Part shown: positions 1 to 28,480 of the stretch, piece by piece | How the letters are laid out: every line of letters starts with the position of its first letter | Position numbering within the stretch: position 1 is the first letter of the stretch | Program-made: the position numbers and the translations under genes | Assembly: GCA_017499595.2 (NCBI GenBank) | Contig: CM039009.1 | Span: 1,364,001 to 1,428,000 of the forward strand | Length of the DNA stretch: 64,000 nucleotides | Reading direction: 5' to 3' | DNA from: Psilocybe cubensis | Lineage: Eukaryota | Notes under the pieces: model-generated | Seen by the model: only the letters and a program-made list of their open reading frames with translations | Told to the model about the DNA's origin: nothing | Databases searched by the model: none

Positions 1-89
1 GCACTGTCACTGCACTGCACTGTGGTGACAGCACTTGGCTAGAGCAATCTAGGCCAGTTGAGACATGTCCGAATTTTCTTTTTTGTACA

Positions 90-140
90 ATATGCTAACA
101 TTCTAAACCTGAACTTACGAGTCCAGGCATTTGGGCATAT
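90..140 (+). mobile_element. Decayed Helitron/Helentron 3' terminus (subterminal repeat plus hairpin)
   Basis: ATATGCTAACATTCTAAA-CCTGAACT-TACG-AGTCCAGG-CATTTGGGCATAT aligns with the terminus after the Rep-helicase ORF (AAATGCTACCACCCTAAA-CCTGGACT-TAAAG-AGTCCAGG-CAGAGGTAAGTAT, 28429-28480). Outer ATATGC...GCATAT inverted pair, followed by T's. Confidence 0.7.
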
Positions 141-764
141 TTAATGGATTTTGTATTTTATTTTTTCTATTTAAACTGAATTTTAGAATGTACAAATATT
201 CTTTAATACTGGAAAATGTCCTAATAATTTGCAGTTTTAGTATCAAATCCATCAGATCCAGACAATGGTTAGCCTGCAATGCTATCAAATCCATAAAAAA
301 TGGAAAATAAAATGCCAAATTTTTGGCCTAAAATCTTTCAGAATCCGGACAAGCCTCTAAGAGAGCTTCTTAGGGCTTATGGCTTTTTATAGCCAAGATA
401 ATATATTTTTGTAAGACTTCTCCTTAAGCACGCAACATCACTTAATATATTTGTATGTGAAACACAATGCACCAACGTGCTACTTTTTTTCTTTGTTTTT
501 AATTGTATTGTTTGCATTGCAAAATAATCAATTTTTAATACTTATTTGTTTTTGCTTGTTTCTGTATTATTTCTGGTCAAAAAGAAAAAAAAAGTAAAAT
601 TATGTATATGTATAATTTATATACTAAAGATTATATTTCAGCATCATAACCAAATTTGTGATCCATATATTTAATATATAATATTTTCCAAACAAATTCT
701 GCGGTTGACTGCAATTTGTGCCACTCTACCAAAAGAGGTCGATTCTATAAAAAATAAATATTTA

Positions 765-1602
765 TTAATAGGACATATAAAAGTATAATAAATTTCGTAC
801 CATTGTTTCCCGTTCAAACTGGTTCATACAAATATGGATAGTGGTCATGTGCTTGTAAATATCCTCGGAATCCTTGATATTGAAAAACTCCAAAAATTTC
901 TTCCAGTCTGTTTTGTCGATGAAACGGGATACAAGTGCAACATATACCACATACTTGCTGCTTAGAATTGGTTCTAGCAAGTAATATGCTGCCACAAAAC
1001 TAATAGAGCTAACAGAAACAACAAATACGTCGTTTGTTGGCCAGTAAATGTCGTTGGTAATTGGTTCAATACAATAACCTTCAATCAGCTCTGAATTAGC
1101 ATCCTAAAATAGCAAAAATAAATATAAAAATATTAGTATATAGTGTAAAATGACTTACTAAAGCATATATAGCATATTCTTTATAACCAAATTCTACAAA
1201 TTCCTGGACAATTGTGCCGTATCCAGGAAATCTATCAGATCCATAAGGAAATACAGAAAATATTGCTTCTTTAGCATGACATGTAATACATACGCTAAAA
1301 TTGCGTAAAGTATAATGCCATGGGTCAATAAGACATTTATGCTGATATCGCCTCCATTTGATCTGGTTGTTCCAGACACCTAAAGTGTCAAGCTCAGTCC
1401 AACGTTGGTTGATTGGAACATATTTCATAATGAAGGCAGTTTCGATTTCGGCATTGATGTCTTTTAATAGATAGCCAAAAGATTCTAAATGAATTAGATT
1501 TAAGTATAATATGTTTAGATATAAATAATATAATTGCTTACTTGATATTATATCAAATGGCGGAAGAAGTTCCGAATATTGATTCAAATTGAGAAAGTCC
1601 AT
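765..1602 (-). CDS. Hypothetical spliced protein in AT-rich DNA, possibly decayed
   Basis: ORFs 1096-1602 and 765-995 can be joined through a GTAAGT...CTAAT...TTAG intron (~1159-1105), giving ...YAIYAL/DANSELIEGYCIEP... No family recognised. Confidence 0.35.
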
Positions 1603-1723
1603 AATGACAAGAAGGACTAATAAACGACAAACACGATTTGAATGTGATGCAATAAAACTTTGTTATTGCAATTTACGCTTTAAATAGGACAAGCTCAAGA
1701 GTAGATTACTAATATAATATAAC

Positions 1724-1796
1724 AAAATGGCGCCATTTTCTCACTGTTTAATAAAATGGTGTCATTTTTTCACCATTTAATAAAATGACTAATTTT
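1724..1796. repeat. Three ~29-bp tandem units, each with a palindromic core
   Basis: AAAATGGCGCCATTTT (perfect palindrome, 1724-1739), AAAATGGTGTCATTTT, AAAATGACTAATTTT. Confidence 0.7.
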
Positions 1797-1980
1797 CAAT
1801 GCATTTGTTGCTATACAATTAGTGCAATTAGTAATATGCCGATGTCATTTGAATACTTCTATTAATATATCACTATAGTATTGATACTATTATCAAATCT
1901 ATCATCATCAATATCACTGTTGCTATGTTACTAATACTGTTTTAGTTTTCTTTAATTGCTTCCATTACTATAGTCCTGTA

Positions 1981-2097
1981 CTATCAACGCCACTGCCATT
2001 GCATTAATACAATATACTGTGTTATCAACGCCACTATCATTGTATTAATACAATATGTGCTATCAACGCCACTGTCATTGTATTAATACAATATATT
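1981..2097. repeat. Minisatellite, 3 copies of ~39 bp
   Basis: TATCAACGCCACTRYCATTGYATTAATACAATAT repeated three times. Confidence 0.85.
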
Positions 2098-2466
2098 GCT
2101 TTAGGTTACATCACACTATTGCCAAATTAGTATACATTATGCAGGGTTACGGAAATTAAAATGCTAGACACCGGCTAGATAGGTATGTTGGCCGCTAGAC
2201 CACAAAAAAACAATTTAAATGCAGTTAGATTCTAAATGATGATGAAACAACTTTTGTATACTTGTTTCAAAAACATGCTAATTCCGTAGAAGTTGGACCG
2301 TATATTTGATAGATTTGATAAAAATCAATCATATAAATAGAACGTACATATAATAGAATTGACTGCTAACATTAGTTATATATATATATATACTTGTTCT
2401 ATTCCATTTGAGTTAGTGCATAACCAATATCAAGAGAAACTTACTAATTTAGTATTATACATTTTT

Positions 2467-2625
2467 ATACGTAAAGCCAGTGCTATATTGAATGAGTAAG
2501 AAATACACGTAAGGACACGTAAGTCTGTGCTGTATTGAATGAATAGTAAGTACACGTAAAGCTAGGGCTGTATCAAATGATTAATAAATATACGTAAAGC
2601 TGGAACTGTATTGAATGAGTAATAT
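2467..2625. repeat. Degenerate minisatellite, ~4 copies of ~37-40 bp
   Basis: Recurring ACGTAAAGCY.G.GCTRTATTGAATGA.TA units. Confidence 0.7.
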
Positions 2626-2934
2626 ATATGTATTCAATTAGATAAAGCAAAATTTGAGAGCTTGTTTTACGACAAGGACTTTCACTGCAGGGGTGGGGTG
2701 GGCTGACAGGTCTAGTTCGATCTGAAGAATATTGATCTAATAATAGTTAAAACTAAGTTACATATGAGAATAATAGAAATTCGAATAGAAATCGTTAAGA
2801 TTTAGGGTAGAGGGTTACGGGCATCAGGGTATAGGGCATAGCAGCTGTATCCTGTATAAATATACCCTTTTAGCAGCCTAATCATTACCGATATCTTCTG
2901 CTACTCGTTTCTATCATACAATACGTACTACAGT

Positions 2935-3246
2935 ATGAACACTTCTTCATCCATTCCAAATGCAAATGAAACTCATCAGGACGCTGGATCCTTTCCTGTT
3001 AGTTAAACATCTATTTTATGAATTATCTATACTAACAATTTTTGTAGATCGGTGTAAAAATTTTTTATATTGACGGTCAAGGCAGATGTATCTATGGGAT
3101 TGTTAAATGTCACCAAGCCATGCACGTAAGTTTATAACATTACTTGTCATTTACTATACCTGATTGGGGCTCCAGTGTACACTTCTTCTGCACATAAAAC
3201 CTCTCGACTCAGATGGAAAAGAACAGAACATGACATGGATTGTACC
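2935..3246 (+). CDS. Small multi-exon hypothetical protein; last exon not resolved
   Basis: ATG at 2935 MNTSSSIPNANETHQDAGSFP / intron GTTAGT..CTAAC..TAG / IGVKIFYIDGQGRCIYGIVKCHQAMH / GTAAGT..CAG / CTLLLHIKPLDSDGKEQNMTWIVP / GTAAGT. TATAAA at ~2855. Not in the ORF track. Confidence 0.5.
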
Positions 3247-3894
3247 GTAAGTAAAATATATTTATATTTAAACATCTTTTGTTAAATTAATATTCTGTTT
3301 AAATAAAGTTCCTATGCAGTCATTTGTGTATAGTCTGTATATACTCGTTATATATCCAGTACCAGAGGTTCATATGTATCCATGATGAAAGAAAATGTTA
3401 ATCAAATATCAACGAGTATACAATATTAGAACACGAATCTGATGAATAGGGTACGCGTTGGCGAGTCAGTATGCTCACGTGACAGGTTTATTACATAGTC
3501 AGATAAAGGTCGGCTATTCGATCTCCTTTGTCCGATTAGATTACTAAATACTGATAAGTCACTGATGTAGCCACAAAATATAAATGCATGTATGTTTCTA
3601 CTGTAGAGCACCAGTGAACAAACAATACTTTACCTGTATATCGATTACTCATGCACCGATACCCCTATGCTCTGTACCAGAACCATGCTACAGTCACTTT
3701 GCATTATACTGGTATTGACTTATGTCGGAAATATGAACCTTGGTTAAACCTTCATTCGATTACCAACAGCAATGATAACTACCCGCAATGGACCCAACCG
3801 ACCTGCGTGAAATATGGTACCACTTTATTATTAATAATTCCATGACCTGACCGATATTCATCGCAATCTAATATCTAATTACATATATCATACC

Positions 3895-5530
3895 CTATAT
3901 CCGATTATAATAACCATGTTTTTGTGAAATAGTCGTAGCCCAACTCCATTTATTTTTGTTGATATCAGGTTGTATCTCACATTCTCTCCGCTTCCCGGGG
4001 TCGGACCGCCATATACGGACCCTTCCAGCTTCCGCACAGACAGCCAATGAATCGCTGGACCAGTCCACTCCACACGAGCTAGACGAACCCCCCCTCAACC
4101 TCACAGCGTGGATGGGTCCGACATCTAATCGAGTGTCGCGTGCAACACTGAAAATGAAAGCATCCCCGTTGTGAGGCCCTCCTCCGTATGCCAACCATCG
4201 ACCACACGGTGAGAGTGACGATTTCACATAAAATGATGGACTCCCCCAGAGACTGTCGCATGGGTTTTGGCTACTGTAGACGTTTAGATCCAACACACAA
4301 TACACATATATCCTTGCATCGGTGCCAAGTCCGAATATAGTACCGTCCGATTCCTTGACCCCCGATACCAGCGACACAATACCCCTAGACTGGCGATGGT
4401 TGTAGACGGTCGGGTCCAAACTAGAGCACGAGAGGTAGGTATTAGTCGATCTGAGATCCCATAATCGAAGAAAACTACCAAAAGACAATGAGACACACTT
4501 TTCTATCGTCTGATAAAACACTCACCCATTCGCGGAACAACTACTTATTACATTATAAGTGGCAGTGTCTTGCAACACGAGCCCCGTAATGGTGGGTTCC
4601 GGAGAAGATCCTACAACCTGATGGGCATGAACGATAGTAGCGACAGACCTAAGACCAGTCGACCCCGAAGATAAACGAACTGATGGATTCATCCGTAAAT
4701 CCCAAAGGGATATAGCACCATCTCTACCTCCGGTGTACACAAGCGACTCGCTCATAGGATGCCACATGACACATTTAACCGGCTCGATATGTCCGTGTAA
4801 CCAATGCGTTATAACTCGATCTTCGACGTTTACGACAAATGCACCGGGATGATCGTCTCCCACGTACCTTGAATGAGTAGACGTACCAACCAATAACGAT
4901 GTATCATCCCTCTTCCATTTCAAATCGCTTATGTAGGACCGATGACGTATAACTTGCCGTCCCCTAGGTTCTACGCGAGGGAAGGAATACGAAAAATAAA
5001 AACCGACATAGAAGTGCTGTGACCAGAGAGAATTAAACGCACCACGTTCCCATAAACACCTCCGTCGTGCGTCAACGACCTTGATGGATCCCTGGCAAGT
5101 GCCTATCGCAAGAAAGGACTTGCCACTAGCTTTAGATTCTACAAACAAGTTCGAATTATACGCTTTGATGAGCGTTGTACTATACATACCATTTGAATAC
5201 GAACAAACGGATTGTCTATCACGCAAGCCGCACTGGTAATCAACACAGTTGAGTGTATCAAATATATTTGAAGATATGAACGAATTTAAAAAAGGAATCA
5301 TAGAGGCTGATACATAAATAAAATAAAAATTAGCAGAATGTTAAATGTTCATTCAATAGAAATACTACACCTCTACAACTGATTCCATTTATAACAGGAT
5401 GCAGAAGACGTTGGAACTGACCAATGCGGTGAAAGGTCGACGCGCTGTATCCTTTATCGGTATCGACAGGGATACCTTTTCTACACATATCAGGGTCTGA
5501 CATGATTAGATGAACGATAAATTGAACCAC
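3895..5530 (-). CDS. cdt2: WD40-repeat protein, divergent Cdt2/DTL (denticleless)-like; multi-exon, 5' end uncertain
   Basis: GHIEPVKCVMWHP..VYTGGRDGAISLWDLR, IVHAH, ISSCSANG, RLWDLR, SRGIVSL, SFYVKSSLSPCGRWLA match the DTL/Cdt2 blade order. Confidence 0.7.
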
Positions 5531-5951: not shown

Positions 5952-6172
5952 TCCAATTTTAAAAATTGTATAGAAAAGCGGATGCTTACAGAAGGTTTGG
6001 TGGGAGAAGTAAATGTACCTCCTTTATGGGATGCGGCGGTCTCCATATGTGTTTTCTTCCTTTTCAAACGCGAAAGTCAGTACAATAGACACAGGACAAG
6101 ATGAGCATATAGTACCGATGCCATTGTTCTTTCTAAACCCATCCTTTTTTTATGTTCATAGGATTCAAAAAA

Positions 6173-6212
<40 letters not shown>

Positions 6213-6340
6213 GATTTATGTCTTCAACCAGATGGCAAGGCACCAAGTACTCTTGACCACCTGGACCAATAATCAACCTATAACCTCTCGGCACTGGCGA
6301 AATTAAGATGACACTAGTAGTAGGAGTTTTTTGAGGAGGT
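5952..6340 (-). repeat. Inverted partial duplicate of 20261-20627 (gene fragment)
   Basis: Reverse complement of 20261-20627 with few substitutions and an expanded poly-A at ~6167-6211. Confidence 0.9.
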
Positions 6341-7456
6341 ATACTCGATCAGCATTGACTTTTTAAAGACGATGATACTCGTTTCCATTCCATGGAAGCA
6401 TTTAGGCATTAGAAATTTTTCATGGCTCTTAGAGTAAGCCTTTAATAAGGTAGGCGGTACTATAAAGCCTCTTGTATCTAGAGGGCTAGACGATTTCGAA
6501 GTTTTCAGTCAATCCGTAATTTGTAAAGCTCGAACTTACTAAGCAATTTCTATTAGCTTTGAAGGGAATGGATACGTTTCAAACGTAATCAAGTTATTGG
6601 TGTTCCTTTGATCTTTTGCGAAAGTTTCTTCGATTGCGGTGAACATTGTTTAGCTGTCACAAGTGGAAACGAGCGGTGTTGCTTTCAAGTTGGTTGGCGT
6701 TAAAGTACTCTGTTTTATATTAGTCCGTCATTTACAATAGATTCTGTTGTCATTCGCATAGAATATTTGCGTCGTGTTTCATATGACTAATTAGTTCTCA
6801 ATAATGTAATGTGTATATGTTGTGAGGATTAGACTCCTTCTAATTACAGAGTTCTAAATGTTGCTGTGGTTATCCTGTGGACGAACATAGAAATACCATT
6901 AACAATCGGGTAAAGTCGTAGAGTGGATAGATATTGCATAAGTGTTGAATATTAATCTAACATGACACCAATCAAAGAGTTCTCCGAGACTGTTCAGTGT
7001 ACTAATCCGTGTATACATAATATATGTTCGTAAATGAAGCTATCTATGTCCGGCTATAAGTTTTGATAAGTGGGTCAAATGGTATGTAAAAGTCCCCTCG
7101 TTCCATAGCAATGGTTTACTGATTTACATTTTATAGTCGTAGGATGGCATGACTACAGAAAAATAGCTAGACATTCCGTGAATTACTCAAGTCACGAGGA
7201 GCCTCGAAAATCACCCACTTACATCAGCAGACATGTTCGGTTTGATGCGTTCCCAGGACCTATGGCCTTGCTGTAAAGCAAAGGCTACCCACTCTTAATT
7301 AAGGATGTTATGACTAGAACTTTGAAATAATTCAATTTGAGTTAAACGCTTTATCTTTCGGTCAAGTCCCTTTTTACTCTACTCACTTCAATTGTTAAAT
7401 TGCATTATAAAGTGTCGATCAATGCCTTCACTTGTATGGCCTTTGGAATGAAAGGA

Positions 7457-9608
7457 ACGCTATTGTCGGATCCCTTGGCGTGGAACTAAGGAAACGAACC
7501 ACCATCGGTGCCGAACTCGCGGTGAAGGTGCTATTACGGTGTTCGAGAACCGCAAGCTCTAAATCTCGAATTCGCTTGTCAGAACTCAGGTGCGTAATCA
7601 CCATCACAAATTCATACTGCCTCCGAGCTATCGGTTTCCCAGTATGGAGACCTTGTTAAGTCGTTTCTACCTTTGAAATCTGTGGAATAAATTGCAAAAT
7701 CCCAGCTTCTAGGAATATAAAGACTCCCTAGAGCACCATTGCATTGCTAAATCGTTGAAACGGACGCATTTCTGACTTGCCAGAGTTTTATGAAGCTGAA
7801 TTTCGTCGTTTACAGCTCGACGAGTTGACTTGACACCGCCCCGGTGGATAATTTAAGTTGGAGTCTCATTCACATTATTGTATATAGATGCAAAAAAATG
7901 TATGTTATTCAAGCTAGTATATAGACAATACATTGTCTAACACTGACGGCAGTTGGTTTAACACAGAATTACTCACTCTCGGTGAAGCGTCGACTTGACT
8001 ACATGTTCAGATCTCCAGACGTTTGCGTCAATGATATCAGGACCATACATAATTTGGTCAAAAAATGGTTTAACCTGACTACGTAGGACCCTATACGCGT
8101 AGATTTGGTTATTTTGGCCCGTCAAAACTGTTGTAGAGGAGAAAAACACTCAAAATATGCCAATGTCCTGCTAATTCACGGCGCTGAAGAAGGCAATGGA
8201 GGAACGCCAATGGATAGCTCCGAGGCAGTATGGGTCTGTGATGGTGATCACGCACCGGAGTTTTGACAGCAAATGTGAAATTTAGAGCTTGCGGTTCTCG
8301 TACACGCTATGCGTGTTTATGAAGCTCCCGTGTCGACATGCATCTTAATTATTCTATGATAGCCCAGAATTTGCTTTTCCTTGACGAGCCCACATCTGGT
8401 CTTGACTCTCAGAGTGCCTGGAACATTGTTGCCTTCTTGCGAAGCTTGGCCGAACAAAGCCAGGCTATCCTATGCACGTAGGTAAGCAGCTATTATCAAT
8501 TATTTATATACTGATCTGTCTTATTCATTAGGATTCATCAAGTGAGCTTCTGCGGTGATGTACCTCTTTGCCATCTTAATGATTTTTTTTTTTGTCAAAA
8601 AACCTTTCGCTGAATTGTTCCATGTACGTCGTTTGACACAATTTTATTGTACCTTGACTGACCAAAATTTACCAGGTCTTCGATCGCTTCCTTTTGTTGA
8701 GGAGAAGGGTGGCTAAACAGTCTACTTCGGTGACCTTGGACACAATGCTGAAACTTTGCTGCACTACTTCGACTCCAACGGTGCTCGCCCATGTCTTCCT
8801 GAAGAAAATCCGTGCGTTATTTTTAACCGTTACACTGATGCCTTATCCTGATCTATCTCCGTCTAATTTCTAGTGCCGAATATATGTTGGACGTTATTGG
8901 TGCCGGAGCGACTGCCTTCAGCAGCATCAACTGGCACGAAGTTTGGAAACGCTCCCCGAGGCAGTCAGGACTGAGCAGGAAATCCAGGAGATCCATACAA
9001 TTGGACGAAGTCAACCTGCTGTTGAAACTGATCTCAGGATTGAATACCCCACCCCATGGCGCAACCAGGTCATCGAACTTGTCATTTAAACAAGGAGCTG
9101 CTGACCATTACCGCATCGCCAAGCTCATCCTCAATGTTGCTGGTGGCTTCTTCATTGGTCTGTCTTTCTCAAGAACCAGGACAGTATACAAAACGTTCAG
9201 AATTGTATATGTGTAAGTCTTGTTCGTTTTAGGATTTGATCTTCGATCTCATAACCTCCTTTTACTAGACTGTTTACATGCTTCTCGTCTTGAAGTTGGT
9301 TTCAATTACTTTGTTGAGTTCACGAAACTGACCAATATTTCTACAGTCAACCGTTGGTGAACATGTTGCAAGTTCCCTTCGTCGCTACCCGTACTATCTA
9401 CGAGGTCAGGAAGCACCCAAGCGGAATGTACAGCTGGACCGCCCACATCATTGCCCAAATTCTGGCTGAACTGCCATGGAACATCCTGGGATCCTGCCTT
9501 TACTTCCTTGTTTGGTGCTGGACCTCCCGCTTCCTATCTGGTCGCGCTGGTTATTTGTACTTGTCTGTTGGAGTTGTGTTCCCTCTTTACTACACCACCA
9601 TCGCCCTA
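7457..9608 (+). pseudogene. PDR/ABCG-type ABC transporter fragment (second NBD plus part of second TMD), frameshifted
   Basis: NAIVGSLGVELRKRTTIGAELAVK / [36 protein letters not shown] / IHQ / ENPAEYMLDVIGAGATA / RTIYEVRKHPSGMYSW...AELPWN...YYTT. Frameshifts and no N-terminal half. Confidence 0.9.
7537..8307. mobile_element. MITE (~770 bp) with ~95-bp imperfect TIRs and TA flanks, Tc1/mariner-like
   Basis: 7539-7632 is the approximate reverse complement of 8213-8305 (GAGAACCGCAAGCTCTAAAT...CATACTGCCTC.GAGCTATC). TA at 7535-7536 and 8308-8309. Confidence 0.75.
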
Positions 9609-10121
9609 GTACGCAATGCCTACGGTCTGCATTTTTTCAGGCATGGCAATACATCGGACTCGGAGATATAAATAAACGCAGAATGACGTTAGGACACTGC
9701 TCATCCAGGCACTCCTTACATGTTGCGTCGTCATAGGTGTTAACATTCGTCAAAGGCATGCTCGCCTGCATCGCATCACCCTCGCCAAGTCCCGCGACCG
9801 ACGTTTGCCATAGCAATGCTCGCCTGAATTGCATCACCCTCTCCAACCTGAGGTGACCTGCAATTCATTTCGCTGAGATTCGGCAAAGGCTCACACGCCA
9901 GAACATGTCCGTTCTCCATGCCACTACTCGCCGCAAATACGGAGAAGTCTTTCAGGGTTTCTAGGCATGGGCCCAACATTGTGGCGGAGAACGGCGAAAT
10001 AAGAATTGGCGATCCTGATAATGGACCTTTTAACCTGGAGGATACAGATCCAGAAACACTGATAGAATGTTCGTAATCCATCCCTTAATATAAGTGATAT
10101 TTTTACTTACCTTGTTCCAAG

Positions 10122-10534
10122 TGTGACGCTAGTGACAACTGTGGCTCGGAGAGTAATAGCAGTTCCGTAGCGGCACACGGAAAAGGTTTCGAAAGGAAGC
10201 TTAGAGGTCGAATAGACAGGTTAAAGTACTCTGTATTCGATGCTTTTCTGTAGCTACTACATAGCTGTATTTATACTGTAAAGGATAAGGTGTCCAAAAG
10301 AAGTAGACGAAGAAAAAGATAAAAGAGGGTTAATTGGGAAACACATGAAGGTGGAGTATAAGTCAGTTTCAAGGGGAATAGAATGAAGGATTAGGAACAT
10401 AGAATGAAGAAAATGAGCTAACGGGGTGCGTGTATCGGGTGGACGGAGCGAAGGTGAAGTCCACAGAAACGAAAATTAAAGATAAGATAAAAAAGAGGAT
10501 TATCGGGGTGTGGGAAACAGACCGGAACGTCACA
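10122..10534. mobile_element. Solo LTR (413 bp)
   Basis: Ends TGTGACG...CGTCACA (7-bp perfect inverted) with perfect 5-bp TSD CCAAG at 10117-10121 and 10535-10539. Confidence 0.85.
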
Positions 10535-10538
10535 CCAA

Positions 10539-10832
10539 GTCAAACGGGTCCATTGGCTACGTGCCAGAGCACAGTTCCACAGATGGCGAGAAGAGGCTAT
10601 GCTTCTTGGGTACGAAATGGACTGAACGATGAGATATTTCCTACGAAAGGAGAAATAGTGGATGAACAGTGCAGTAGCGGCAATGGCTGGTGATGCCTCT
10701 GCTAATGACGTGGTACAAAAGGGGCGAGCAGCCTATGCCAATCGCCAAGCAGCCATGTGGGGTGACTTGGCGAGGCGAACAGATTACCTATTTCGTATTA
10801 CCAAGCCTGGCTATAAAAAGGGGTTAATCTAA
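10539..10832 (+). pseudogene. C-terminal remnant of KDZ (Kyakuja/CxC2-associated) transposase
   Basis: RVHWLRARAQFHRWREEAMLLGYEMD*TMRYF...*W...GRAAYANRQAAMWGDLA, the characteristic KDZ C-terminal helix motif, with two in-frame stops. Confidence 0.7.
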
Positions 10833-10908
10833 AAATAGATATGGTTCAGCGTAAAAAAAATTGAATCATGAATCTTGAAAAAGTCCAACACATCTGCGGT
10901 GACCGTCC

Positions 10909-13410
10909 ATGACGTTTTCTTCAATCGATCCTTTCGATCTACATGGTTTTGCATCTGAATCGGCAAAGCAGTACCGCGAACACATACAAGAGCTCGTCTA
11001 CTATGGGGAATCACGATTAAAACGAGCGGTGGACGAGATTTTAAAAAAACCGATGGAAGATCAAGCTCCATTCCAAAAATGCCTACGAAAAGAACTGGTT
11101 AGTAACTCAATTAATGGGATACCTTTTACTAATGGTTTTACAGCATTACTTTTTGACTTACGTGGGCTTGATCACATCAATGGGACAAGTTGTTGATGTA
11201 CCATTTACGCTGCGTTCGTTGGCATTTTCTTTAGGGAGAATTGCTCCAGAGGATCTACCCATGCAATTCAACGTCGAGTTCGTGCAAGCGCTTAACATAA
11301 CACGCGATGAAGACCGTGGGGAAGTAGTAGCGAGCTACAAAAGACCGTGGTGGGAAGAATTCAGGCCAAGTTGGCGATCTGTCATAGACGATGGTTCAAT
11401 CGGCGAGTGTTTATCACACCACAGGAAACTAATAGGAATAGAAAATAAACATCGTTTTATTGAGTCTCTTGGTAGCGATATCACTCCATCCTCGTTTGCC
11501 ATGACACCAGGAGAGCGAATGCTCTTTGAACCACTTCAGAACGCTCGGCGAACAATTATGGTAATGACTGAAGCTCAAACGAGCCATCAGAGTGTCATTT
11601 TCAGAAAGGCAGAGGAATACTGGAATCTGCATGACGCTTCGAAGGCCGAAGGGATGAATAGGGACCATTGGAAAATGGGCATTACCGAGATGGGTAACAA
11701 TATTACGGAGATTGGAGGTGTTGACTATGTTGATAGGTGCGTGTTTCTGCAGAGGAATAGCGTTCCAGCGGCGTTGATACCGAAACACCTAAGAATAGGA
11801 TATCAACACCGGCATTTCAACGTGCGACGTCATGCAATGACCCGCCTTTGGTTCGGGATTCAAAACACCGTTCGAAAGACTGGAAACCGTCAGAATTGGA
11901 TGATGATTACAGTCTCTCCCCGCTTCCGTCCCCTGCACTGCTGTACCGCTCAGAATCAATCCAAACCGATCAAGGCACCGTGCCTGTAGAAACTGTACCG
12001 CCCCATTCTGGTCCTGATATCTCGTGTGGTTCGCCAGAAGAAATGGGCGATCTTTCTATGCAAGCGTCACTATCACCAGGTTTTGCTAGCGCACGGTCCC
12101 GCGATGAAATGGCAGAGTTGTACGAGGATATAAAGCCCCATATCCAAGAACCTATCCAAAGTTACTCGCCCGAATTCCACCCACCCATCCGTATTCCTTT
12201 GGCAGATGAATTAGGAGATCTTTTCAGGGACATCCCTTCAACTCCAGGCCGATCATTTGATATGGAGATACTGGGGATACAGTCTCCTAATGTGCTCGCG
12301 ACATTATACGAGGAAATAACACCCCAATTCGGCATAGATCGCCAATCCTCGCCGGAAATCAAAACACTTCGCCTGAACCCTTCGGCAGATGATTTAGGAG
12401 AACTTTTCAATGATATTTTACCGCCCTCAGGCCTCTCTATCGATCCTGATATTACTGCAACGCGACCTTCTGATGTACGTTCAACGCGGGACGAGGATGT
12501 AACGCTCCAAATTAACGTAGATCGCCAATCCTCGCCGGAAATCTGCGCACTTCGCCTTAATCCTTCACCAGATGATTTAGTAGATCTTTTCAGGGACATT
12601 CTACCACCTGCAGGCCTGTACCCCAATCTTGATATTAATGGAACGCGGCCTTCTAATGTGCCTGCAACATTGTACAAGGAAATCACACCCCAAGTCGACG
12701 TAATTCGCCAATCCTCACCGGAAATCTATGCGCCTCACCTTAATCCTTCACCAGATGAGTTAGGAAATCTTTTCAGGGGTATTCTTCCACCTTCAGGTCC
12801 ATTTTCAAATGTCGAGTATACTGGAACTCAGTCTCCGCAAGAGTGTACAACAATGCGCGAGGATTCGACGCCTAAATGCTACCCATCTCGCCACATTGCT
12901 TCGACGGATGAATTAAGCGAACTCTTTATGGACATCCTACCTAATCCAGAGCCTTTGAAGAGGTCAGAGGCCCAGACCCCCAATAAACGTTCAGGGTTTA
13001 CAGAAGATACACCACCCACGTATCATCCAAACTGTTATATTTCATCACCGGACGAATTAGGAGAGCTTTTCAGGGACTTAAAACCTGCCTCAGAGCTGTC
13101 GGAGAGCCCTAGTGCCTACGTTGCACAGTCCCCAAATGACATTGCAGCACTTTGGCAAAATACTAACCAACCCAATAACCATTCACCTCGCCATAATGCT
13201 TCGCCAAATGAGCTGGGGGCGTTGTTTCAAGGTATTACACGGCTCGCTCAAACGACGGATAATAGTGCTAACACAGCACTGCAAGGTACCTCAAACGTCA
13301 TGTCTCGTCCACCAGCCTCGAGCAATATTCATGAAGATCAAAGTCTTTCATTGGGCAGTAGTAACCATCTGAATGGGCTCCCTTCCAAGAGGCAAAGACG
13401 TCAAAAATAA
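10909..13410 (+). CDS. Multi-exon hypothetical protein with C-terminal D-E-L-G-x-L-F-x-D-I repeats
   Basis: ORFs 10909, 11114 and 11848 can be joined by GT-AG introns. About 8 repeats of a DELGDLFRDI-like motif spaced ~50-60 aa apart. Confidence 0.6.
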
Positions 13411-14136: not shown

Positions 14137-15017
14137 CTAGAAATAGTGAAGGAAATGAGCTTGTAATAACTCGATTTCCATTTCTGTCATCTTGGTCTGG
14201 GAAAAATTGGCGAATCTGTGCAAAAAGCCGTGTATATAGTCGGGGGTCCATCGAGAAACAGCGTAAATCATTTCTTGCTTTGTAATCCCAAAGGCATGAA
14301 AGTCCTGCAAAAGGTGTATCATGGAAGGGGAACAGGAGTCGAGAAAGGATGCAATTGCATCATTTTCATTCGAGTCATAACGCGACGGTGGGCGGGATAC
14401 GGTATTGGCTGACGATGAGGCTGGAAGTCTCACTGTTAACTCTGGTTGGGATGATGAAATTACCATACATACCATTGACGTTCTCCTCTAATCGTGAATC
14501 TGAGGAACTCGCCGATGTGGAAACCAACGGAACTATTTCAGGAAGGGTAAGTTTACTACGGGCTGGTCCGGGCATCTTCAATGAATTGGGGGTTGGGTAC
14601 ACCTTTAGTTGGTAAAAAAAGGATGAAGGGCCGTTATTTACTCACCCCTTTACGCTTCCGTACATTATAGCGCGCCATCTCAAGTCTCTCAATTATGTAT
14701 TGCTCCACAAGATCAAGTCTTTCACTTTGATCATTTTGCAGTGAGTGGTTAAAAATATCGGGGTATGCTTTTAATACCTGTAGGAAAAAAAAAAAAAAAA
14801 AAACTGTAGTAAGTAAAGGTCCATGCAAATTAAACACATAGTCCGTGCCCACCGTTTGACGAAACAATTTCCGTTGTTCAACTTGAAGAGAAGGTGGCAA
14901 ATCCAATGTTAAGCAATCCTGCCCAATTTTAATGATGTCGTTCTGTGAAGCAATGAGGATAATGTGCATGAATAGTATTGGAAATACTAACGACGATGTC
15001 CGAGACTGCTTGGTCAT
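14137..15017 (-). CDS. Multi-exon hypothetical protein (agaricomycete-type C-terminal helical domain)
   Basis: Exons in ORFs 14634-15017, 14375-14602 and 14137-14475. C-terminus FLDSCSPSMIHLLQDFHAFG...AVSRW. Start uncertain. Confidence 0.5.
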
Positions 15018-17567: not shown

Positions 17568-20103
17568 TTACAAACAAAAGTCAATGTCAATGGGTTGATC
17601 CGAAGTACCTCCATACCACTGGTGTTGGCTGGCTTCTAACTTTTCCCGCGAATGAACAGGAATGTAGGGCATCTTATCAGCATCAATCTCCGCCGAGGAA
17701 TCCGAATCCTTATCACCAAATTTCTCGCCCTGTTCGTCCTGTCCGCCCTTCTCGCCTTCTTCGCCGTTCTCGTTCTCTTCGCCGTTCTCGTTCTCTTCCC
17801 CGTTCTCGTTCTCTTCCCCGTTCTCGTTCTCTTCGCCGTTCTCGCCCTCTTCGCCGTTCTCGTTCTCTTCGCCGTTCTCGCCCTCTTCGCCGTTCTCTCC
17901 CTCTTCGCCGTTCTCGTTCTCTTCGCCGTTCTCGCCCTCTTCGCCGTTCTCGCTCTCTTCACCGTTCTCGCCAATCCCGGTTTCATCACCAACCTTGCCC
18001 GAAGACTTAGAGAAAAGTCCTTTGCTGTCAAGAATTTTGGTTTGAGAGTCAGTTTGAATTCCTTGGTCCTTTGTACTCCCGCGGCGAAATGGGCAGGGAC
18101 CTTCTTCCCCTCTGTGGTAGGTATCATCGTGCATGTTCTCCATCGTTATTTCAACACCGACTAATTTATGAAGGACATCACTATGATAGGAATGCAGGAC
18201 TTCGAATTTGTTTGAGAGCATGTCTATAGCAGCCATGGAAAACGCCATTTTCGCTGCAATATAGTCGAAGCCATGGTCGTGATTAGCCAATTGCTTGTCG
18301 ATTCGCTTCATGACTTTGTTCATCTTAGTGATATTCTTCTCTAATCGGGCCAGGCGATCTTCATTAGGGTAAGCTTCATTATCTGCATCTGCTTTGTTGT
18401 CTTCCCAATTGCGAATATATGTCGGCCGTGTAGGTAGTGGGCCTGCTGGAGCACGAGCTTCACTTCGCGCCATATCTTCTGCCACCCATGCTTCCCAATT
18501 CCTGGCAAATTCTTCTACAAAGATGTAAGCATACAATTTGCATAATACTGGATGAATTCTTACCAATGTCTTTAGCCGCTCTCGCAGATTTCTCGGGAGG
18601 AAGTGAGCTAGACGATGCTTTGGGTGGTGCGGTGTACCTTGGTATGGCTTCCCATGATTTGAGTACGTTCTCTGTTTTGATCTTAGCCTCAGTGTAGACA
18701 AACTGATAATGTACCTTACCCATAGGATGTTTGTCTTGGTTGGTTTGGGAAGAATTGAGGTCTGCGGTCTGCTCGGATATAGGTTGCTTTCCATTGCTGT
18801 GCTTTGGATCTCTCAGCGCCGGCGAGTGATGTTGAGGGTCGTGATGGCCACAATTTTCATCTGGTTCAGGTGAGCCGGTTTCGCGTTTAGGCCTTTTTTG
18901 GCGATGCAATGGTTTTCCATGTTTTCTAGCTTCTTCAACAGGACCTGTGATATCTTCGTTCGCCTCAGGCAGCCTCCTCACAATAGTATCCCCTCGATTG
19001 TCACAGCGAACCCGATGCGAACCACAATAAAAGCAAGAGTACCCTTTATATGTGACACGGCAATTAATATTGCGATCTGCGCACTGAGCGCAGGGTTGGA
19101 GATGGACATAGTTGGTTGGAACAGGAGGTGTGCGATCCTGCTTTGTTTCAGAGCGGCCTTGCACCTTTATGTTCGTTTTAACGTTGGAATGTGGGGCGGG
19201 TTCTGGAGTAAGTTTGCGACCAAAGTTTTCAGTAGACGTTGGACCCTTTGCTACTGCTGCCATGGCTCGTGTGATTCGTTTTCCAGATGAAGTGTCCGAC
19301 GAGGGTGCAGGTGCTATAACACGAGTGTCTGGCGGATTGATATTAGAGGGAATATCTGATGGAACATATCCATCTTCGTTATTGTTGTCGCTTGAGTTTT
19401 CAATAGATACAAGTGTTTTTGGTGGTGGAAGTTCGGGGCTGGCTTGCCTGGCCTGTTGCACTCGACGTTTCTTAAGTGGAGGTGACGGTTCTCTAATGAG
19501 TGCGGAATGGTTTGCACTGTCGTTGACGATTGTCTCTGCGACTGTCTTGGTTTTCTCAGCGCTACTAGACCGCGAGCGCTTATTGGCGACTTGGTGTCGA
19601 GACTTTCTTGTCGTGCGTCTTGGACCCTCAGAGTCTTGGCGAATTCGGCTGCCCTCGCCATCCACATTTTGGCGAACGTGCACTTCTGAATGCTGGTCAT
19701 CCTTGCCTTCTAATGTGGGCTTCTGTACTGGTTCATCGTGCGGATCATCGATCTCACGTTGCAGATTTTGGCAGTATTCGAGAAACTCGTGGCTGCGATG
19801 CTCTCTCTTGCGGAAAGCGTGTCCATAAGCACTCAGAAAGGCGAAAAGGAAGTTATACTGGGGCTTTTCTTTTTCCTCCTTGAAGCGACCGCAGGTTGTG
19901 GCAACCGCTTTCTAAATTGTTGTCTCGGTGTATGGTCAACATGTAAAAAGAATATAACTCACTGCTGTTTCCAAGTGCGAATCCATAACTTTAGCAACAT
20001 CACCATCGACAAGGCTCTTCCGAATTTTTTGATCAAGTATCTTTATCGCCTCCTGGAACGTTGATAGATTATGGATAGATTGGAGCTCAGTGGATTCAGA
20101 CAT
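17568..20103 (-). CDS. Multi-exon protein with Zn(II)2Cys6-like cysteine cluster, coiled coil and acidic GEENEN repeat
   Basis: CAQCADRNINC-x8-CFYCGSHRVRC at ~19000-19090. Overlapping ORFs 18460-19683 and 17568-18794 can be linked by introns. Probable ATG at 20103 (MSESTELQ). Confidence 0.6.
17753..17972 (-). repeat. Coding 9/18-bp tandem repeat (GEENEN/GEEGEN)
   Basis: CTCTTCGCCGTTCTCGTT-type units repeated about 12 times. Confidence 0.9.
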
Positions 20104-20261
20104 TATGGAAGGATTTGGATTTGAGGTTGTATCGTAGCGGAAAGATAGAATTGTAATGTCTGACAAGCTAAAATGATTTTCTCGCGGCTGACGCCGGCAT
20201 GCTCGATCAGCATTGACTCTGCACTGCTCAATCAATTTGTAAGGTCGATTGTCTGGTTGAC

Positions 20262-20830: not shown

Positions 20831-21100
20831 AGGGTTCGAAGATTATTGTAAGAAAGGAAAATGAATACATAATATAGTTTTTTTATAAAAAATATTAAGT
20901 GATGAGGTGGGCGAGCCGGCTGGCGAGCACGAAAATAAAGGCGAACGGTATATTATTATCATTTTCACATATCGTTTTTACGACGTAAAAATTGATGAGC
21001 GCCAGCAGTGAAAGTGAAACATTTGTATCGTCAGGCTTGACGAGGGTAAAAACAAAAGAAGGTAACAATAGATCTAACCAAGTCGTGCCACATTACACAC

Positions 21101-23203
21101 TCACGTCGCTCTCCCCGCCAGTGATAAGTAGTGACTGCGCTAAAATTTAATGGAAAAGAGGGCTTGTTCAGAACCATTCAAAAAAAGGGATATGGACCAC
21201 AACGTACCACCTGCACAATCTGCGACTTTGCAGGTTCGGGTATGTTGTCGATATGTTCCTGAGTCATACCCAACACTATCGATATAGCCTATAATATTCC
21301 CATTCACAACCACAACAGTGTAATTGAAAAGAATAGAGAAAATTGCATGTAAAACGGAACAAGTCATGAGGAAACATAAGACAACCTGTCAGTAAACAAA
21401 CACTCACACGTTGTTGTTCTGGATCCATCTCCACAAATGCCGTTGCTATTTGCGCAAGCTGTTGTTGCTGCTTTATTAACGGAGGTTCGACAAGTGTAAG
21501 TGGGGAGGTACAAGGCGACAACGACGGGTCGTGGCAGATCCTATGTAACTCAAGGAGATATTGGGCATGCGCATGGGGTTTTACGGCAATCGACGATTGC
21601 TCCCGTGTCGTTGGCATCAACTGACTTGAGGAATAATGCAGGCCATGCAATGGGGAGTATGGCGTATACAGTGGGTATTGGCTATCTGAACCTGTTGGTC
21701 CTTGGTCGATTGGAGATTGAGTTAGAGAACTACCAGCCGCAGCGGGTCGTCGCGAGGAAGCGAGCATACGTTCAATCATAATTGGATCAACAAATCGATT
21801 CAGTACGAGGGAATGGCAAAGTGCGTAGGCTAGCTGTGGGTACCTAATGAGCAGCGTTCGAGCTTTTTCAGGATATGTGATCACGAAAGCCTGAAAATGA
21901 AAAAGACAAAGGTTCCAATCAATACAAAACACCGCAAACAATGACGTTAAAACAGAAACTCAAATTCCGTTGCTCACCTTCATCTGAGCCAGGGCCTCGC
22001 GAACTTTACTCTCCGGTAACTCAGCCACGATCCATTTAATGTGGTCAAGTGCTGAAACACCACTCGGGATGGTTATCCCAGGTGGGATATTCGCTAAAAA
22101 TGTATCATTGTCATTCCACTGCCCTTTACCCCCGTCATTTGCATCCAAATGCATTCGGCTACGGTATTCGGATGACCCAGTGTAACCCCTATCCATTATA
22201 CGGCCTCTAACAGTCGTTTTTCCTTCCAGAAGAGGGTCCAAATCGGCCAAATCGACACGCAATGAACGACCTCCGCAGTCCGTATTATTGAGATTACGAA
22301 CAGCCAAAAGAGCAGTCTCGTGATCTTTGACATGAAAAGACAAGTGTCGCGTACGTGTGGTAGATATTGAAGCAGAGACAATGCAGTTTGCAGTTTCGGT
22401 GTTGATATACAAGGACAACGGGATGGGGTCGCGAATTAAAGTTTGATACGCACATAACAGTAAAGTATAACTGATTGCGCGGGTAAAAGGATTTCACATC
22501 AAGGAGATTTCAATGGATATAGGGTATACACATAACCATAACGGTCGCAGTATTCGAGGTAATCGAGCCAAGAACAAGCCGTGATTTGATTTTTGTTATG
22601 ATTAGTGCGTTGTACACACATTGAAATATATTGGGTTTCACGAAGAATGTATCATTCGAAAAAGGATGCGGCACATTGTTGTAATTCGTGGATATGAGGA
22701 GTGAGGTTAATTCTGGGTAAGTTAAGTAATTCGAAATTCGACACTCACGCGTTTGGGTGTATTTGAGACATACAAGACAATCGTGACAACAGAGTTGATA
22801 TAATCGCATCCCATTAAGTAGTGTAGGAATGAATAAAAGAGAAACTTAAAGATCAGACATAATACGTGTTGATAGGCAGGAAGAAGCGAGATAGAAGTAC
22901 CTGCAAATTCACAAAAGCCATAACCTTTTGGTTTTTCTGTGTCTCTGTCGAAGGCGAGCCTGTATAGAAGAGTGTATAGAGTTTAGTTGTAACCTCTCCC
23001 GAACAAGAATACGAAATACGATACCTAAATCCTACAACCTGACCAACAGCCTTGAAAATAATCACAATTTGTTCTTCTGTCATGTTAAAAGGCACATTGC
23101 CAACTTACAGGTCACCAATACGGACAGAGAAATGAGACGAAAAGGATTTGAGCACTCCAATAAAATACGCACCAAACACCACACGACTTTTGCTGTTAGA
23201 CAT
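21101..23203 (-). CDS. RNA15: CstF64/Rna15-like polyadenylation factor (RRM + hinge + C-terminal domain), divergent
   Basis: MSNSKSRVVF/VGNVPFNMTEEQ..FKAVGQVVGFR/LAFDRDTEKPKGYGFCEFA/DHETALLAVRNLN..GGRSLRVDLAD; hinge LAQMK/AFVITYPEKARTLLIRYPQLAYAL; C-terminus IVLGMTQEHIDNIPEPAKSQIVQV/RSHYLSLAGRAT*. Confidence 0.85.
22345..22788. mobile_element. Probable old solo LTR inside an intron of the CstF64-like gene
   Basis: TGTCGCG...CGTGACA ends with imperfect flanks (ACAAG / ACAGA). It accounts for most of an unusually long (~575 bp) intron. Confidence 0.45.
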
Positions 23204-24865: not shown

Positions 24866-24965
24866 NNNNNNNNNNNNNNNNNNNNNNNNNNNNNNNNNNN
24901 NNNNNNNNNNNNNNNNNNNNNNNNNNNNNNNNNNNNNNNNNNNNNNNNNNNNNNNNNNNNNNNNN
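24866..24965. other. Assembly gap (100 N)
   Basis: Run of N. Confidence 1.
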
Positions 24966-27900
24966 GACCCGATCAATACATTATCAAACAAGAGTGTTCA
25001 TGTGGATCGAATCTATAATTCAATGTGAATTTCCAAACTCAGTAGGATCCGAACAACAGACTAACGATTACCCCCGACGAATACTATCTACTGAAACAGG
25101 TGATCCTCATCCAGGTGTAATACAATCACCTTCCCCACAAAATTATACCGATATAAACCAATTTTGGCTCGAGTTCGACTTCTTCCTGGAGCGAATCTTA
25201 CATCAGTACGCATGGCACGAGCACCAAGCAACGTGCTGGAAATACCTTGAACGAGGTCAATCCAAATCAGACAATAATTGCAGAATGGGTATAAATGGGC
25301 AGACCTTGGAAAAGACTACATTAGACGAAATAACAAAAGAGATACTACTCCGCAGACACCATCCAAGATTAGCGCAACACACTGATATAGTATCATTCTT
25401 ATTGCAGTGCAACATGGACATTAAATTCGTAGGGTCAGGAGATGCAGCAAAAGCGTTCTTGTACTATGTTACTGATTATATAACAAAGGCATCTCTACCA
25501 GTTCATGCAGGTATGGCCGCGTTGTCGTATGCTGTAAGTAAAGCGTACAGCAAAATGTCCGCAAATCAATCAGAAATATCAGACAATCAAACAGTGGGTG
25601 CCATCATAACAGCTGTTAATAGTATGATGGGCAGACAGGAAATATCACAACCACAAGTAATGAGCTATCTAGTAGGCGGAGGCGACCACTACACATCTCA
25701 CAAATTTGCTATACTCAAATGGCACAGTATAAGAAGGTTTTGCATGTCTCATCACACTAAATCCAATCAGACGCCCAACAACAGCACATTAGACGACGTA
25801 AGCAATACCAACGAACAAGAAAACGAAGAGTCAGTTGAGTTAAATATGGGTGACAGAGACATAACGGCGTCCAACCAACGACTGGACTATTGTTTAAGAC
25901 CAGCGAACGACAAATTCATAGATTTGTGTTTGTATGACTTTGTAGCATGGGGTATCAAACAACGGTATACCAAAGAAATGTTACACATTGAAACAGCAGT
26001 ACGTCCAGGATCATTCTTAAACGACGAGCACCCTGAGTATTTCACCCATTATATGACAATCAGAAGAAAAAGTTGTATACCAATTATACTAGGCCCTTCT
26101 ATTCCGAATCCATTGAAGTCTGATCAACTAAAAGATGACTGGGCAAGGGACATGTTACTCCTCTTCAAACCGTGGAGGGATATATCAGATTTAAAGACCC
26201 CATCAGAAACATGGACAGACGCATTTCATAACTACGAGATATCAATGAAACTAGAACACACGCGCATCATACAGAACATGCAAGCTTTGACAGAATGTAG
26301 CGAGGCCCGCGACGCACACAGGCAGCGCAGACGTGGAAAAACATCCGAGGATGTAGTGTCCGATGAAGTACAGGATATAATATTAACAGACACGGAAGGT
26401 AATACAGACACCCTCAACCCTAACGATGTATACTCTCCAGATCCCTTCCAATGCATTGAAAACCCCAACGAAGACTTTACAACAAACTTACACGACTCCA
26501 TAGATAACATAGGAGAGGAAACTTCAAGATTTCTAGACATGTGTCTCCCACTGGATACAACGGAAACTGCTGTGGACACGGAATATCAAAAATCAGTTCC
26601 AGTAAACCAACAAACTCTAACATCACATGAAGTGGATGATCTGTTAGCAAGCCATCGCGCCATCATGAAATCAAAAAGAAAACGTGCAATGCTACATGAA
26701 CCCGACACAGACGACATAACTACGCCACCCAAACGATATCGCAATGGGAACTATGCACCTATTGCCAAGCAAGCTATACTCCAGGATTTGTATGATTTAA
26801 GTCATAATTACAATTCAATAACAGACACTGACACCATGAACAACATCGCAGAAGAAATGGGACTTTTAAATAACCCAGAACAGCTAAAGGCGTTCCGAAT
26901 CATCGGTAACCATATCATAACCGACAACAAGGAACAGTTGCTGATTCATATTGCAGGCGTTGGCGGTACAGGTAAATCCCATTTGATAAAATGTCTGATT
27001 ATGTTATTCGAGCGCTTGCATCGCAGGAATGAGTTATTATTAGGAGCACCGACCGGAATAGCGGCAGTGCTGATCGGAGGACAAACACTACACTCACTGA
27101 TAGTATCTCATGCAAATCAGTCACAAGCAAAACCCAATAAACTTAAACTAATTCAAATTTGGAAATACATAAAAACTTTAATAATAGACGAGACCTCAAT
27201 GATAAGCGCAAAATTCCTCAGTGAAATCTCTATCAGAATTAGGCAAGGGAAAGGAGATGACGTCGTTAACAGCAATAAACCATTCGGAGGAATTAATGTA
27301 ATATTTATGGGCGACTGCGCACAACTAAAACCCCCTCTACAAAAGCCATTATATGCAAATGAATTGGTGAAGAACCCGTCTTTTGCAGAAGCTCGGAACG
27401 TGTCAGGACCATCACAACTAAATGGCGCATTTCTATGGAGACAAGTAAAAACAGTGATACAACTAGTCAAAAACGAAAGACACGCAAGAGACATAAAGTA
27501 TGCCCTTTTTCTTGATAGACTAAGATTGGGCCTCTGCAGAAGTAATATTAACAATATTAAAAGTGACAATGAACAGTCAGATTACCATTATATATATAAC
27601 AGACTTATCCAGAAACAGGCTTCTAATCCAAAAACACTAGCATTGTTCAGAGATGCACCTATCATTGTAGGCAACAAGGCCGTACGAGACATCCTGAATG
27701 CCAAGCTAATCAAGTACCATTCAACAAAAGCAAATATATCACCACATATATACTATTCACGAGATGAGAGACACAAAAAAAGGATTACAGGTGAGTTCCA
27801 ACAGATATTATGGAGACTACCTTCAACAAAAACAAACGACGCCCTTGGAAAACTACCTCTTTTCATTGGAATGAAAGTAATGATAACAGAAAACATTGCA

Positions 27901-28395
27901 TTCGATGATAAAATAGTCAATGGCACTGAGGGTATAGTCACAGACATAAAATATGAAGTGGACGAGAAATACCGTCGATACTGCAAAGCTGTGTATGTAC
28001 ACGTCAAAGGTTGTGGAATACAAGTAGACGGGCTAGAAAAAGATGTTGTTCCAATTTTCCCTTCTTCGACTTCAATAGATGTTAAATACCAAAAGCATAT
28101 CAAATTGTTTGACAGCTTTACACGGAAACAAGTCCCACTAATACCAGCGTATGCGTACACAGACTATAAAGGACAAGGTCGCACACTTGATAGGGTAATT
28201 GTTGATTTATTAACGGCAAGAGGTCAAGGTGCATATGTAATGCTCTCCAGAGTAAAATCCATATCTGGATTACTAGTTCTACGATGGTTCCCTGAGAATA
28301 AAATATACAATCGGTTACCTGAAGAACTGCGCAACGAGTTAAACAGACTGGACAACATAGCGAAGTCCGACGTCGAACAATCTAGACCAATCTAG
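24966..28395 (+). CDS. Helitron Rep-helicase (end of Rep domain + PIF1-family SF1B helicase); 5' part lost in the gap
   Basis: HEHQATCWKY, CRMG, NMDIKFVGSG..AKAFLYYVTDYITK (Rep motif-3 tyrosines); GVGGTGKS, APTGIAA..IGGQTLHS, IIDETSM, PFGGINVIFMGDCAQLKP, GMKVMITEN..IVNGTEG, QVPLIPAYAYTDYKGQGRTL, YVMLSRV. No stops over more than 1100 codons. Confidence 0.95.
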
Positions 28396-28480
28396 ACCGA
28401 ACGAGACCACCTATTTCCTTTTATAGAAAAATGCTACCACCCTAAACCTGGACTTAAAGAGTCCAGGCAGAGGTAAGTAT
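24966..28480 (+). mobile_element. Helitron-like element (Helitron2/Helentron-type 3' end)
   Basis: Rep-helicase ORF followed by a perfect 8-bp hairpin CCTGGACT-TAAAG-AGTCCAGG (28447-28467). No CTRR after the hairpin. Confidence 0.8.

Follow-up and report, generated by a model that had tools for sequence, protein, structure and literature searches.

Right end and transposase of the element

Does a large transposon carrying whole host genes occupy this part of the Psilocybe cubensis genome, or do a Helitron and a set of duplicated genes lie here side by side? The question concerns a window of 64,000 nt (contig CM039009.1, 1,364,001 to 1,428,000; all coordinates below are window positions), in which two Helitron-like termini, a Rep-helicase gene, and homologues of Cdt2 and CstF64 occur, and in which two genes match P. 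cubensis proteins at 100% identity. With a probability of about 0.7, the data are explained by a recently active reverse Helitron2 resembling FoHeli4/5, which would extend leftwards from 28469 through the Rep-helicase gene and an assembly gap to the Cdt2-like gene at least, over 27 to 31 kb or more. Its right end, the multi-copy cargo block, and the intact duplicated host genes are observed directly.

The transposase open reading frame (ORF) reads on the plus strand towards the right end, stopping at 28395, and is interrupted on its left by the gap. A PIF1-type helicase (E = 5e-23) and a Rep part are joined in this one ORF, as indicated by its alignment (52% identity over 1141 aa) with a full-length relative carrying Helitron_like_N; the two-tyrosine motif lies within the segment so aligned. 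Relatives are 43 to 53% identical, and many measure about 1900 to 1950 aa, with Helitron_like_N and DUF6570. The window ORF aligns from residues 813 to 832 of full-length relatives, and the position of DUF6570, which most close relatives contain, falls inside the gap, where the N-terminal half with its HUH motif would also lie. Since runs X3 and X8 contain 6367-nt contigs that overhang 24966 by 2922 nt, the gap hides about 2.9 kb or more, predicted to be enough for the N-terminal 810 to 830 aa. The ORF ends about 10 residues past the helicase match, and no endonuclease domain of Pfam follows the helicase; the element is therefore not a Helentron in the strict sense. No Pfam match to a tyrosine recombinase, the Starship captain, was obtained, the terminal gene being the Rep-helicase. 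Viral contigs gave eight distant helicase matches (26 to 29%), which serve as background only.

Reads and contigs of runs X3, X8, X12, and X13 (4 of 14 listed) were placed on positions 9400 to 29399, with 1 to 9399 outside. In X8, a 3734-nt contig (record 16) consists of 1526 nt of other DNA followed by the flank with the GNAT genes from 28469 onwards; it makes up the whole depth of the flank bin, no other flank contig being placed. The X3 flank contig carries 7 unaligned letters ahead of 28469. In X12 (12 reads) and X13 (13 reads), 27151/27152 is joined to 28469/28468 on opposite strands with a one-base overlap. Because two independent junctions (the X8 contig and the X12/X13 reads) lie at 28469, this is the precise end common to independent insertions, and the position of 28480 given in an earlier sequence-only reading of this DNA is corrected accordingly. 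The 1526 nt could represent an empty site or another insertion at the same base. The 27151 junction, one-base overlap included, fits a TGCCT end inserted into the transposase gene of another copy. The event is a self-insertion in the opposite orientation, the route to ORF reversal proposed in PMC5148889. As had been noted before, host genes follow directly: four tandem GNAT acetyltransferase genes (28565 to 32686), 62 to 80% alike in DNA, start just right of 28469.

The same terminus does occur twice in one orientation, as the sequence-only reading had noticed. Positions 39 to 129 and 28382 to 28469 are 73% identical over 92 bp, with a local score of 58, whereas none of 30 Markov shuffles scored above 32; the shared sequence is found on the left side of both hairpins and breaks off at the same base in each. 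The minus strand of both termini starts TGCCTGGAC (TGCCT) and, 2 nt in, folds into a hairpin of 8 pairs (z of −3.8 at 28382 to 28469 and −2.5 at 39 to 129). At 28469 no CTRR comes after the hairpin, which departs from the canonical Helitron1 structure of a 5′ TC and a 3′ hairpin with CTRR about 11 nt behind it. The first terminus, formerly described as decayed, is indeed diverged, but it retains its hairpin and is as much a diverged relative as a decayed copy. A single element cannot be bounded by two ends of the same kind that face the same way, and therefore the pair does not bracket an island of about 28 kb, as had been supposed; the terminus at 129 belongs to another, related element outside the window to the left. 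Both had been called Helentron-type 3′ ends, yet both match the TGCCT hairpin end labelled 5′ in the literature on FoHeli3-5 of Fusarium oxysporum. These elements start with TGCCT and a hairpin, end in CTCCTGT, and have the ORF reversed in FoHeli4/5 (PMC5148889); they have been named HLE2-reverse (PMC11417382). By that label, the TGCCT end, from which the minus strand starts at 28469, would be the start of replication.

Related loci were taken from soil metagenomes and were all chosen by their transposase, so that they provide no unbiased background. A scan of 600 nt with a strict hairpin found the motif near none of 34 loci. A looser scan found it at two loci. At L009 it lies downstream of the transposase in reverse orientation, like that of the window element, and at L012 it lies upstream in sense orientation.

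Cargo genes duplicated from the host

The CstF64-like gene is a duplicate of a separate host gene (KAH9474802, P0005), to which the window copy is 63% identical. It belongs to a cluster of five sequences, 98 to 99% identical, that have six GenBank accessions or loci on at least five contigs, one member being a short model of 160 aa. A tree of 23 proteins, with the short model and 38 of 57 matches left out, joins the copies to the P. cubensis parent as sisters at 100/100 support, their branch measuring 0.92 changes per column versus 0 for the parent. The window copy matches the parent at 57 of 67 conserved columns versus 49 of 113 variable ones (p = 2e-8; 49 native homologues), and 200 trials of random change to 61% identity, indels uncounted, left the two long exons free of stops 19 and 3 times, respectively. 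Since conserved columns are retained and exons are rarely stop-free under random change, the sequence argues that this copy was under selection for much of its divergence. One of its introns (22325 to 22900) measures 576 nt versus 65 to 119 nt for the others and has no Rfam match.

The Cdt2-like protein is 38 to 41% identical to two agaric WD40 proteins, and its model contains two WDxR motifs. An identical annotated product, named cdt2, occurs at KAH9475314, KAH9476962, and KAH9479875, three loci on three contigs. A search for Cdt2 among long proteins returned two weak matches only, and no P. cubensis Cdt2 parent was retrieved.

Indirect evidence for a link between cargo and transposase

At all three Cdt2 loci of one annotated P. 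cubensis assembly, on three contigs, a CstF64-like accession (KAH9475319, KAH9476967, and KAH9479880) stands five numbers after the Cdt2-like one. With accession order taken as gene order, a 19-kb block reaching from Cdt2 to CstF64 would recur at three loci, which is the joint recurrence that had been put forward as a check on the idea of a mobile cargo. The other three CstF64-like loci have no Cdt2 partner listed; CstF64-like, which is near the transposase, is thus found at six loci versus three for Cdt2-like, which is farther from it.

Cargo and transposase are both deeper than the flank in all four runs. Median depth relative to the flank, for cargo (21 bins) and Helitron (4 bins), respectively, was 4.6 and 3.8 in X3, 2.1 and 2.0 in X8, 1.9 and 2.0 in X12, and 1.3 and 1.9 in X13. 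In eight X8 contigs, differences from the window number 27 in 11989 nt on the left side of the gap and 4 in 3445 nt of the Helitron (p = 0.28 between them), whereas the flank differs at 23 of 931 nt (p = 4e-15), about 2.5% versus about 0.2% for cargo and transposase.

The truncated gene at 6317 to 6651, 18 kb left of the gap, has relatives at 14 of the 37 closest loci (9 of them non-redundant, mostly from a few related samples) and at none of 49 others. One such relative resembles the GRF zinc finger of Pfam, but at an E value of 0.025 that does not reach the cut-off. Members of this small gene family, with a cysteine pattern like that of GRF zinc fingers, were observed on either side of agaric-type Helitron transposases at L001, L003-L006, L012-L014, L021-L024, L027, and L043. 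Close to the gap, an apparently spliced ORF (24358 to 24865, minus strand) runs into it, pointing away from the transposase, and is a candidate companion gene; the ORFs at 23288 to 23857 and 24358 to 24864 have no match among related loci and no Pfam family.

The minimum length to the Cdt2-like gene is 24575 − 100 + 2922 = about 27.4 kb, and to position 130 about 31.2 kb. In FoHeli3-5, the far end contains a 13- to 16-bp asymmetric inverted repeat lying 20 to 40 nt inside CTCCTGT. Searches of the window by inverted repeats and by ACAGGAG returned nothing matching the 28469 end, and no far end was found for L012. A weak candidate repeat at 182 to 200 matches the end at 129, from which it is 52 nt distant, and not that at 28469; none of 92 background windows equals it at k = 19, but 5 do at k = 13 and 12 at k = 16. 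A head-to-tail joint at 129/130 is conceivable, though the odds are somewhat against it; the far end would then fall roughly where the earlier reading drew it, for another reason. The far end may also lie in the gap or outside the window, or differ in sequence.

Weighing of the alternatives

Several points weigh against a single large element. No listed contig or read crosses the gap, the left-side contigs ending at 24624, so that the earlier statement that the gap leaves the linkage of cargo and Rep-helicase unproven still stands. A P. cubensis annotation was not found for this Rep-helicase (best match 53%, exact look-up negative), and transposase and cargo therefore cannot be placed together at other loci. 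Between 130 and 24865, no CTCCTGT end occurs together with an inverted repeat that fits the 28469 end, the TGCCT-hairpin motif was found beside only 2 of the 37 closest loci, and the 27151 junction demonstrates movement of the end but not of cargo along with it. One of the three annotated loci may be the window's own, and that accession order equals gene order is itself inferred. The depths are contig-based, and the tool warns that they are not copy number; the flank is represented by a single edge bin of 657 nt, the window sequence may itself derive from X3, X12 and X13 belong to one study, and X13, with cargo at only 1.3 times the flank, fits poorly.

Such points would be accommodated if two young repeats lay side by side, namely, a Helitron of 6.5 to 8 kb with its far end in the gap, and a 20-kb block spread otherwise, by segmental duplication or by an element such as the relative ending at 129, the joining of the two possibly being due to scaffolding only. 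The left block is a mosaic with higher-copy repeat pieces, its candidate repeat at 182 to 200 fits the 129 end and not the 28469 end, and its depth in X13 (1.3 times the flank) is below that of the Helitron (1.9 times); together with the lack of any record across the gap and of a far end, this is what separate repeats would give. We nevertheless consider this arrangement unlikely, as depth is close across the gap in three of four runs, divergence in X8 is indistinguishable, and the block contains a Helitron companion gene. Moreover, the 6367-nt contigs leave only a few hundred nucleotides past the start of the transposase, while an ORF enters the gap from the left, and a long near-identical repeat would by itself be expected to break an assembly.

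The ~390-bp inverted repeat, with arms 14 kb apart and 89 to 96% identical, could be taken for the terminal inverted repeats of a cut-and-paste KDZ-like element (5952 to 20627) nested in or next to the Helitron, especially as a scrap resembling KDZ C termini lies between the arms. This is very improbable. Depth of the right arm is under two-fold, which means that no family of such ends exists; none of the ORFs scanned between the arms encodes a transposase, and the Cdt2-like and CstF64-like genes recur together yet lie outside them. Inspection by eye of the outer ends of 5952 to 20627 revealed no target-site duplication, and with the depth under two-fold this candidate was rejected. Because of that depth, its location within a coding region, and the companion gene that it cuts, the repeat is read as an internal inverted duplication and not as transposon ends. 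The nested KDZ/Helitron composite proposed earlier as the mobile unit is set aside with it, the KDZ-like piece being short and broken by stops and the repeat having only about two-fold depth.

That the cargo is simply the host's own single-copy genes in a repeat-rich neighborhood would agree with both genes being intact and spliced and with the failure to retrieve a separate P. cubensis Cdt2 parent. It is hardly credible in view of near-identical copies at six and three loci on several contigs, of the separate CstF64 parent, and of the long branch of the window copy. For CstF64, the separate parent and the six loci refute it; the case of syntenic single-copy cargo genes, which had been named as fatal to the idea of a mobile island, thus fails. 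The proposal of a giant cargo-carrying rolling-circle element survives in what concerns the multi-copy cargo, the three joint loci, and a depth and divergence like those of the Rep-helicase; its weak part is the link across the gap, which is indirect.

Predicted mechanism and possible roles of the cargo

On the reading of one large reverse Helitron2, and by the known Helitron mechanism, the Rep-helicase would nick at the TGCCT end and peel off the minus strand. A missed stop signal would let the process run on into the DNA beyond, and the element would grow on the side upstream of its transposase gene. Successive rounds at different sites could have added a copy of the CstF64 parent, transposon scraps, the ABC fragment, a former companion gene, and Cdt2, and variable stopping would produce shorter copies that keep the TGCCT end. 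Prior to the latest burst, selection would have maintained both host-gene copies, which may be of use to the element.

In a bolder version, to which we give little credence, this would be an autonomous Helitron2 of at least 31 kb with domesticated host genes, a divergent Cdt2 entering the CUL4-DDB1 ligase and a divergent CstF64 retuning 3′-end choice. The targets of fission yeast Cdt2 include Spd1, Epe1, and Cdt1, and its ligase destroys Spd1, an inhibitor of deoxynucleoside triphosphate synthesis, and Epe1, a boundary factor (PMC11763709). A role of the Cdt2-like protein in nucleotide supply or in escape from silencing is hypothetical.

Other contents of the interval

The Cdt2-like and CstF64-like genes, the ABC fragment, and the orphan genes that had been placed between the termini were all confirmed, together with the gap and the PIF1-type Rep-helicase ORF (Table 1). 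Within the window, Rfam gave no match, exact look-up of seven window ORFs found none of their proteins in the collection, and the CpG ratio did not separate the element from its flank.

Table 1. Positions of the features between the left margin of the window and the host flank
Position	Strand	Feature	Evidence or remark
39..129	-	TGCCT-plus-hairpin terminus of a related Helitron, body left of window	73%/92 bp; TGCCTGGAC; hairpin z −2.5
130..3890		AT-rich block, 32% GC, 29- and 38-bp tandem repeats, ORFs	two ORFs scanned, no Pfam match
182..200	+	candidate asymmetric inverted repeat, weak	15/19 matches to subterminal sequence of 129 end, 10 exact
3895..5503	-	WD40 gene resembling Cdt2; complete open model, 473 aa, 3 introns (GT-AG)	two WDxR motifs
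5952..6342		left arm of inverted repeat with 20262-20627; 96% identical in blocks, 89% counting gaps	truncates companion gene
6317..6651	-	truncated companion-family gene, GRF zinc-finger-like in relatives	relatives adjoin related Rep-helicases
8341..9668	+	ABC (PDR-type) transporter C-terminal remnant, stops and frame shifts	ABC2_membrane E 2e-9
10122..10830	+	higher-copy repeat piece (10122-10534), then KDZ-like C-terminal scrap	two in-frame stops in scrap
11053..13410	+	orphan gene with three exons; open model, 749 aa, 61-aa internal repeats	gene model
14140..14487	-	fragment related to ORF downstream of a related Rep-helicase	E 9e-8, 34%/76 aa; seen at 1 of 78 loci (L003)
17571..19911	-	orphan ORFs of 414 and 483 codons, acidic 18-bp repeat, cysteine cluster	ORF list
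21093..23203	-	gene resembling CstF64/Rna15; complete open model, 373 aa, 6 introns (GT-AG)	duplicate of separate host gene
24866..24965		100-N assembly gap	at least ~2.9 kb missing
24966..28395	+	C-terminal 1142 aa of Helitron2-type Rep-helicase, open frame	PIF1 E 5e-23; 43-53% to relatives
28382..28469	-	element terminus, TGCCT and 8-pair hairpin, ends at 28469	X8, X12, X13 junctions; hairpin z −3.8
28565..29287	-	first GNAT gene of four-copy host array, flank outside element	element ends ~96 nt past GNAT stop codon

Short higher-copy repeat pieces lie at 10122 to 10534, 16343 to 16496, 17471 to 17561, and 23995 to 24026. The first has a depth of about 270 versus about 50 nearby, with loose ends at 10122 and 10534. 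Reads connect the repeat edge at 23995 to 24026 with 10486 and 16426, and these scraps and their kin may derive from one other transposon family. Related short motifs occur in both orientations at 200 to 355, 1190 to 1260, and 23961 to 24030, where 23995 to 24026 is the high-copy repeat edge. No KDZ family match was found in the ORFs scanned, a scan that excluded the 95-codon scrap itself.

For the orphan gene of 749 aa, no meaningful Pfam match was obtained, and its exon 2 gave no usable match in the ESM Atlas. Between the ends of a deletion variant of 10798 to 12252 (16 reads in X12 and 18 in X13) stand 11 letters that come from about 11090, a pattern suggestive of template switching in two steps in a single copy. 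A 94-bp inverted repeat of 86% identity (7539 to 7632 and 8213 to 8305, 580 nt apart) lies right before the ABC remnant and resembles a miniature inverted-repeat transposable element (MITE). Farther to the right, a 50-bp inverted repeat (55011 to 55377, 267 nt apart, 78% complementary) is another possible small MITE, and two tandem gene copies about 2.4 kb apart (59352 to 62624) contain 21-bp repeats that encode a coiled coil.

Comparison with known systems

Fungal Helitrons are said to reach 14 kb, and capture of full-length host genes is described as exceptionally rare (PMC6431247); Helitrons in general are said to be seldom longer than 10 kb and seldom faithful with cargo (PMC11162782). An element of 27 to 31 kb has roughly twice the reported fungal size and would extend the limits of both size and capture. 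No report of this element, or of giant fungal Helitrons with whole host genes, was found in the open-license literature; the length tables of PMC5148889 and PMC11417382 could contain longer fungal elements. What is new here is that whole duplicates are traced to housekeeping parents, with linkage at several loci and signs of selection.

The closest likeness is to FoHeli3-5, with a TGCCT-hairpin end, self-insertion, and DUF6570 in relatives of the window element. No target duplication was seen at the window element, of which one end is fixed. As in FoHeli4/5, the window transposase reads towards the hairpin end, and L009 versus L012 parallels FoHeli4/5 versus FoHeli3. Unlike FoHeli3-5, which measure 9 to 11 kb and have little evidence of capture, the window element would be at least 27 kb and carry whole host genes, and a CTCCTGT far end with its inverted repeat was not found in 130 to 24865. 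The element also lends itself to testing at which end a reverse Helitron2 begins to replicate. HELPO1 of Pleurotus ostreatus is likewise an agaric Helitron with extra intact genes and family-specific companion genes, but it measures 1.5 to 13.7 kb, has canonical ends, and, according to its authors, does not capture host genes (PMC4289320), whereas the CstF64 of the window traces to a host parent. Large maize Helitrons, which reach 39 kb, share the size, the mosaic cargo, and the end-bypass model; their cargo consists of gene fragments (PMC6431247), while the window holds two full-length genes with signs of selection.

In function, the window element resembles the Starships, which mobilize intact genes around fungal genomes. 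These depend on a tyrosine recombinase and are for the most part lacking in basidiomycetes (PMC11162782); the window element is not one of them. If the reading of one large element is correct, intact, near-identical copies of a cell-cycle ubiquitin-ligase receptor and of an mRNA 3′-processing factor were recently placed on several contigs, and basidiomycetes, which mostly lack Starships, would have a route of gene amplification of their own. Were the domestication version to hold as well, the element would be a mushroom counterpart of the Starships, carrying whole functional genes and hijacking a ubiquitin ligase as viruses do.

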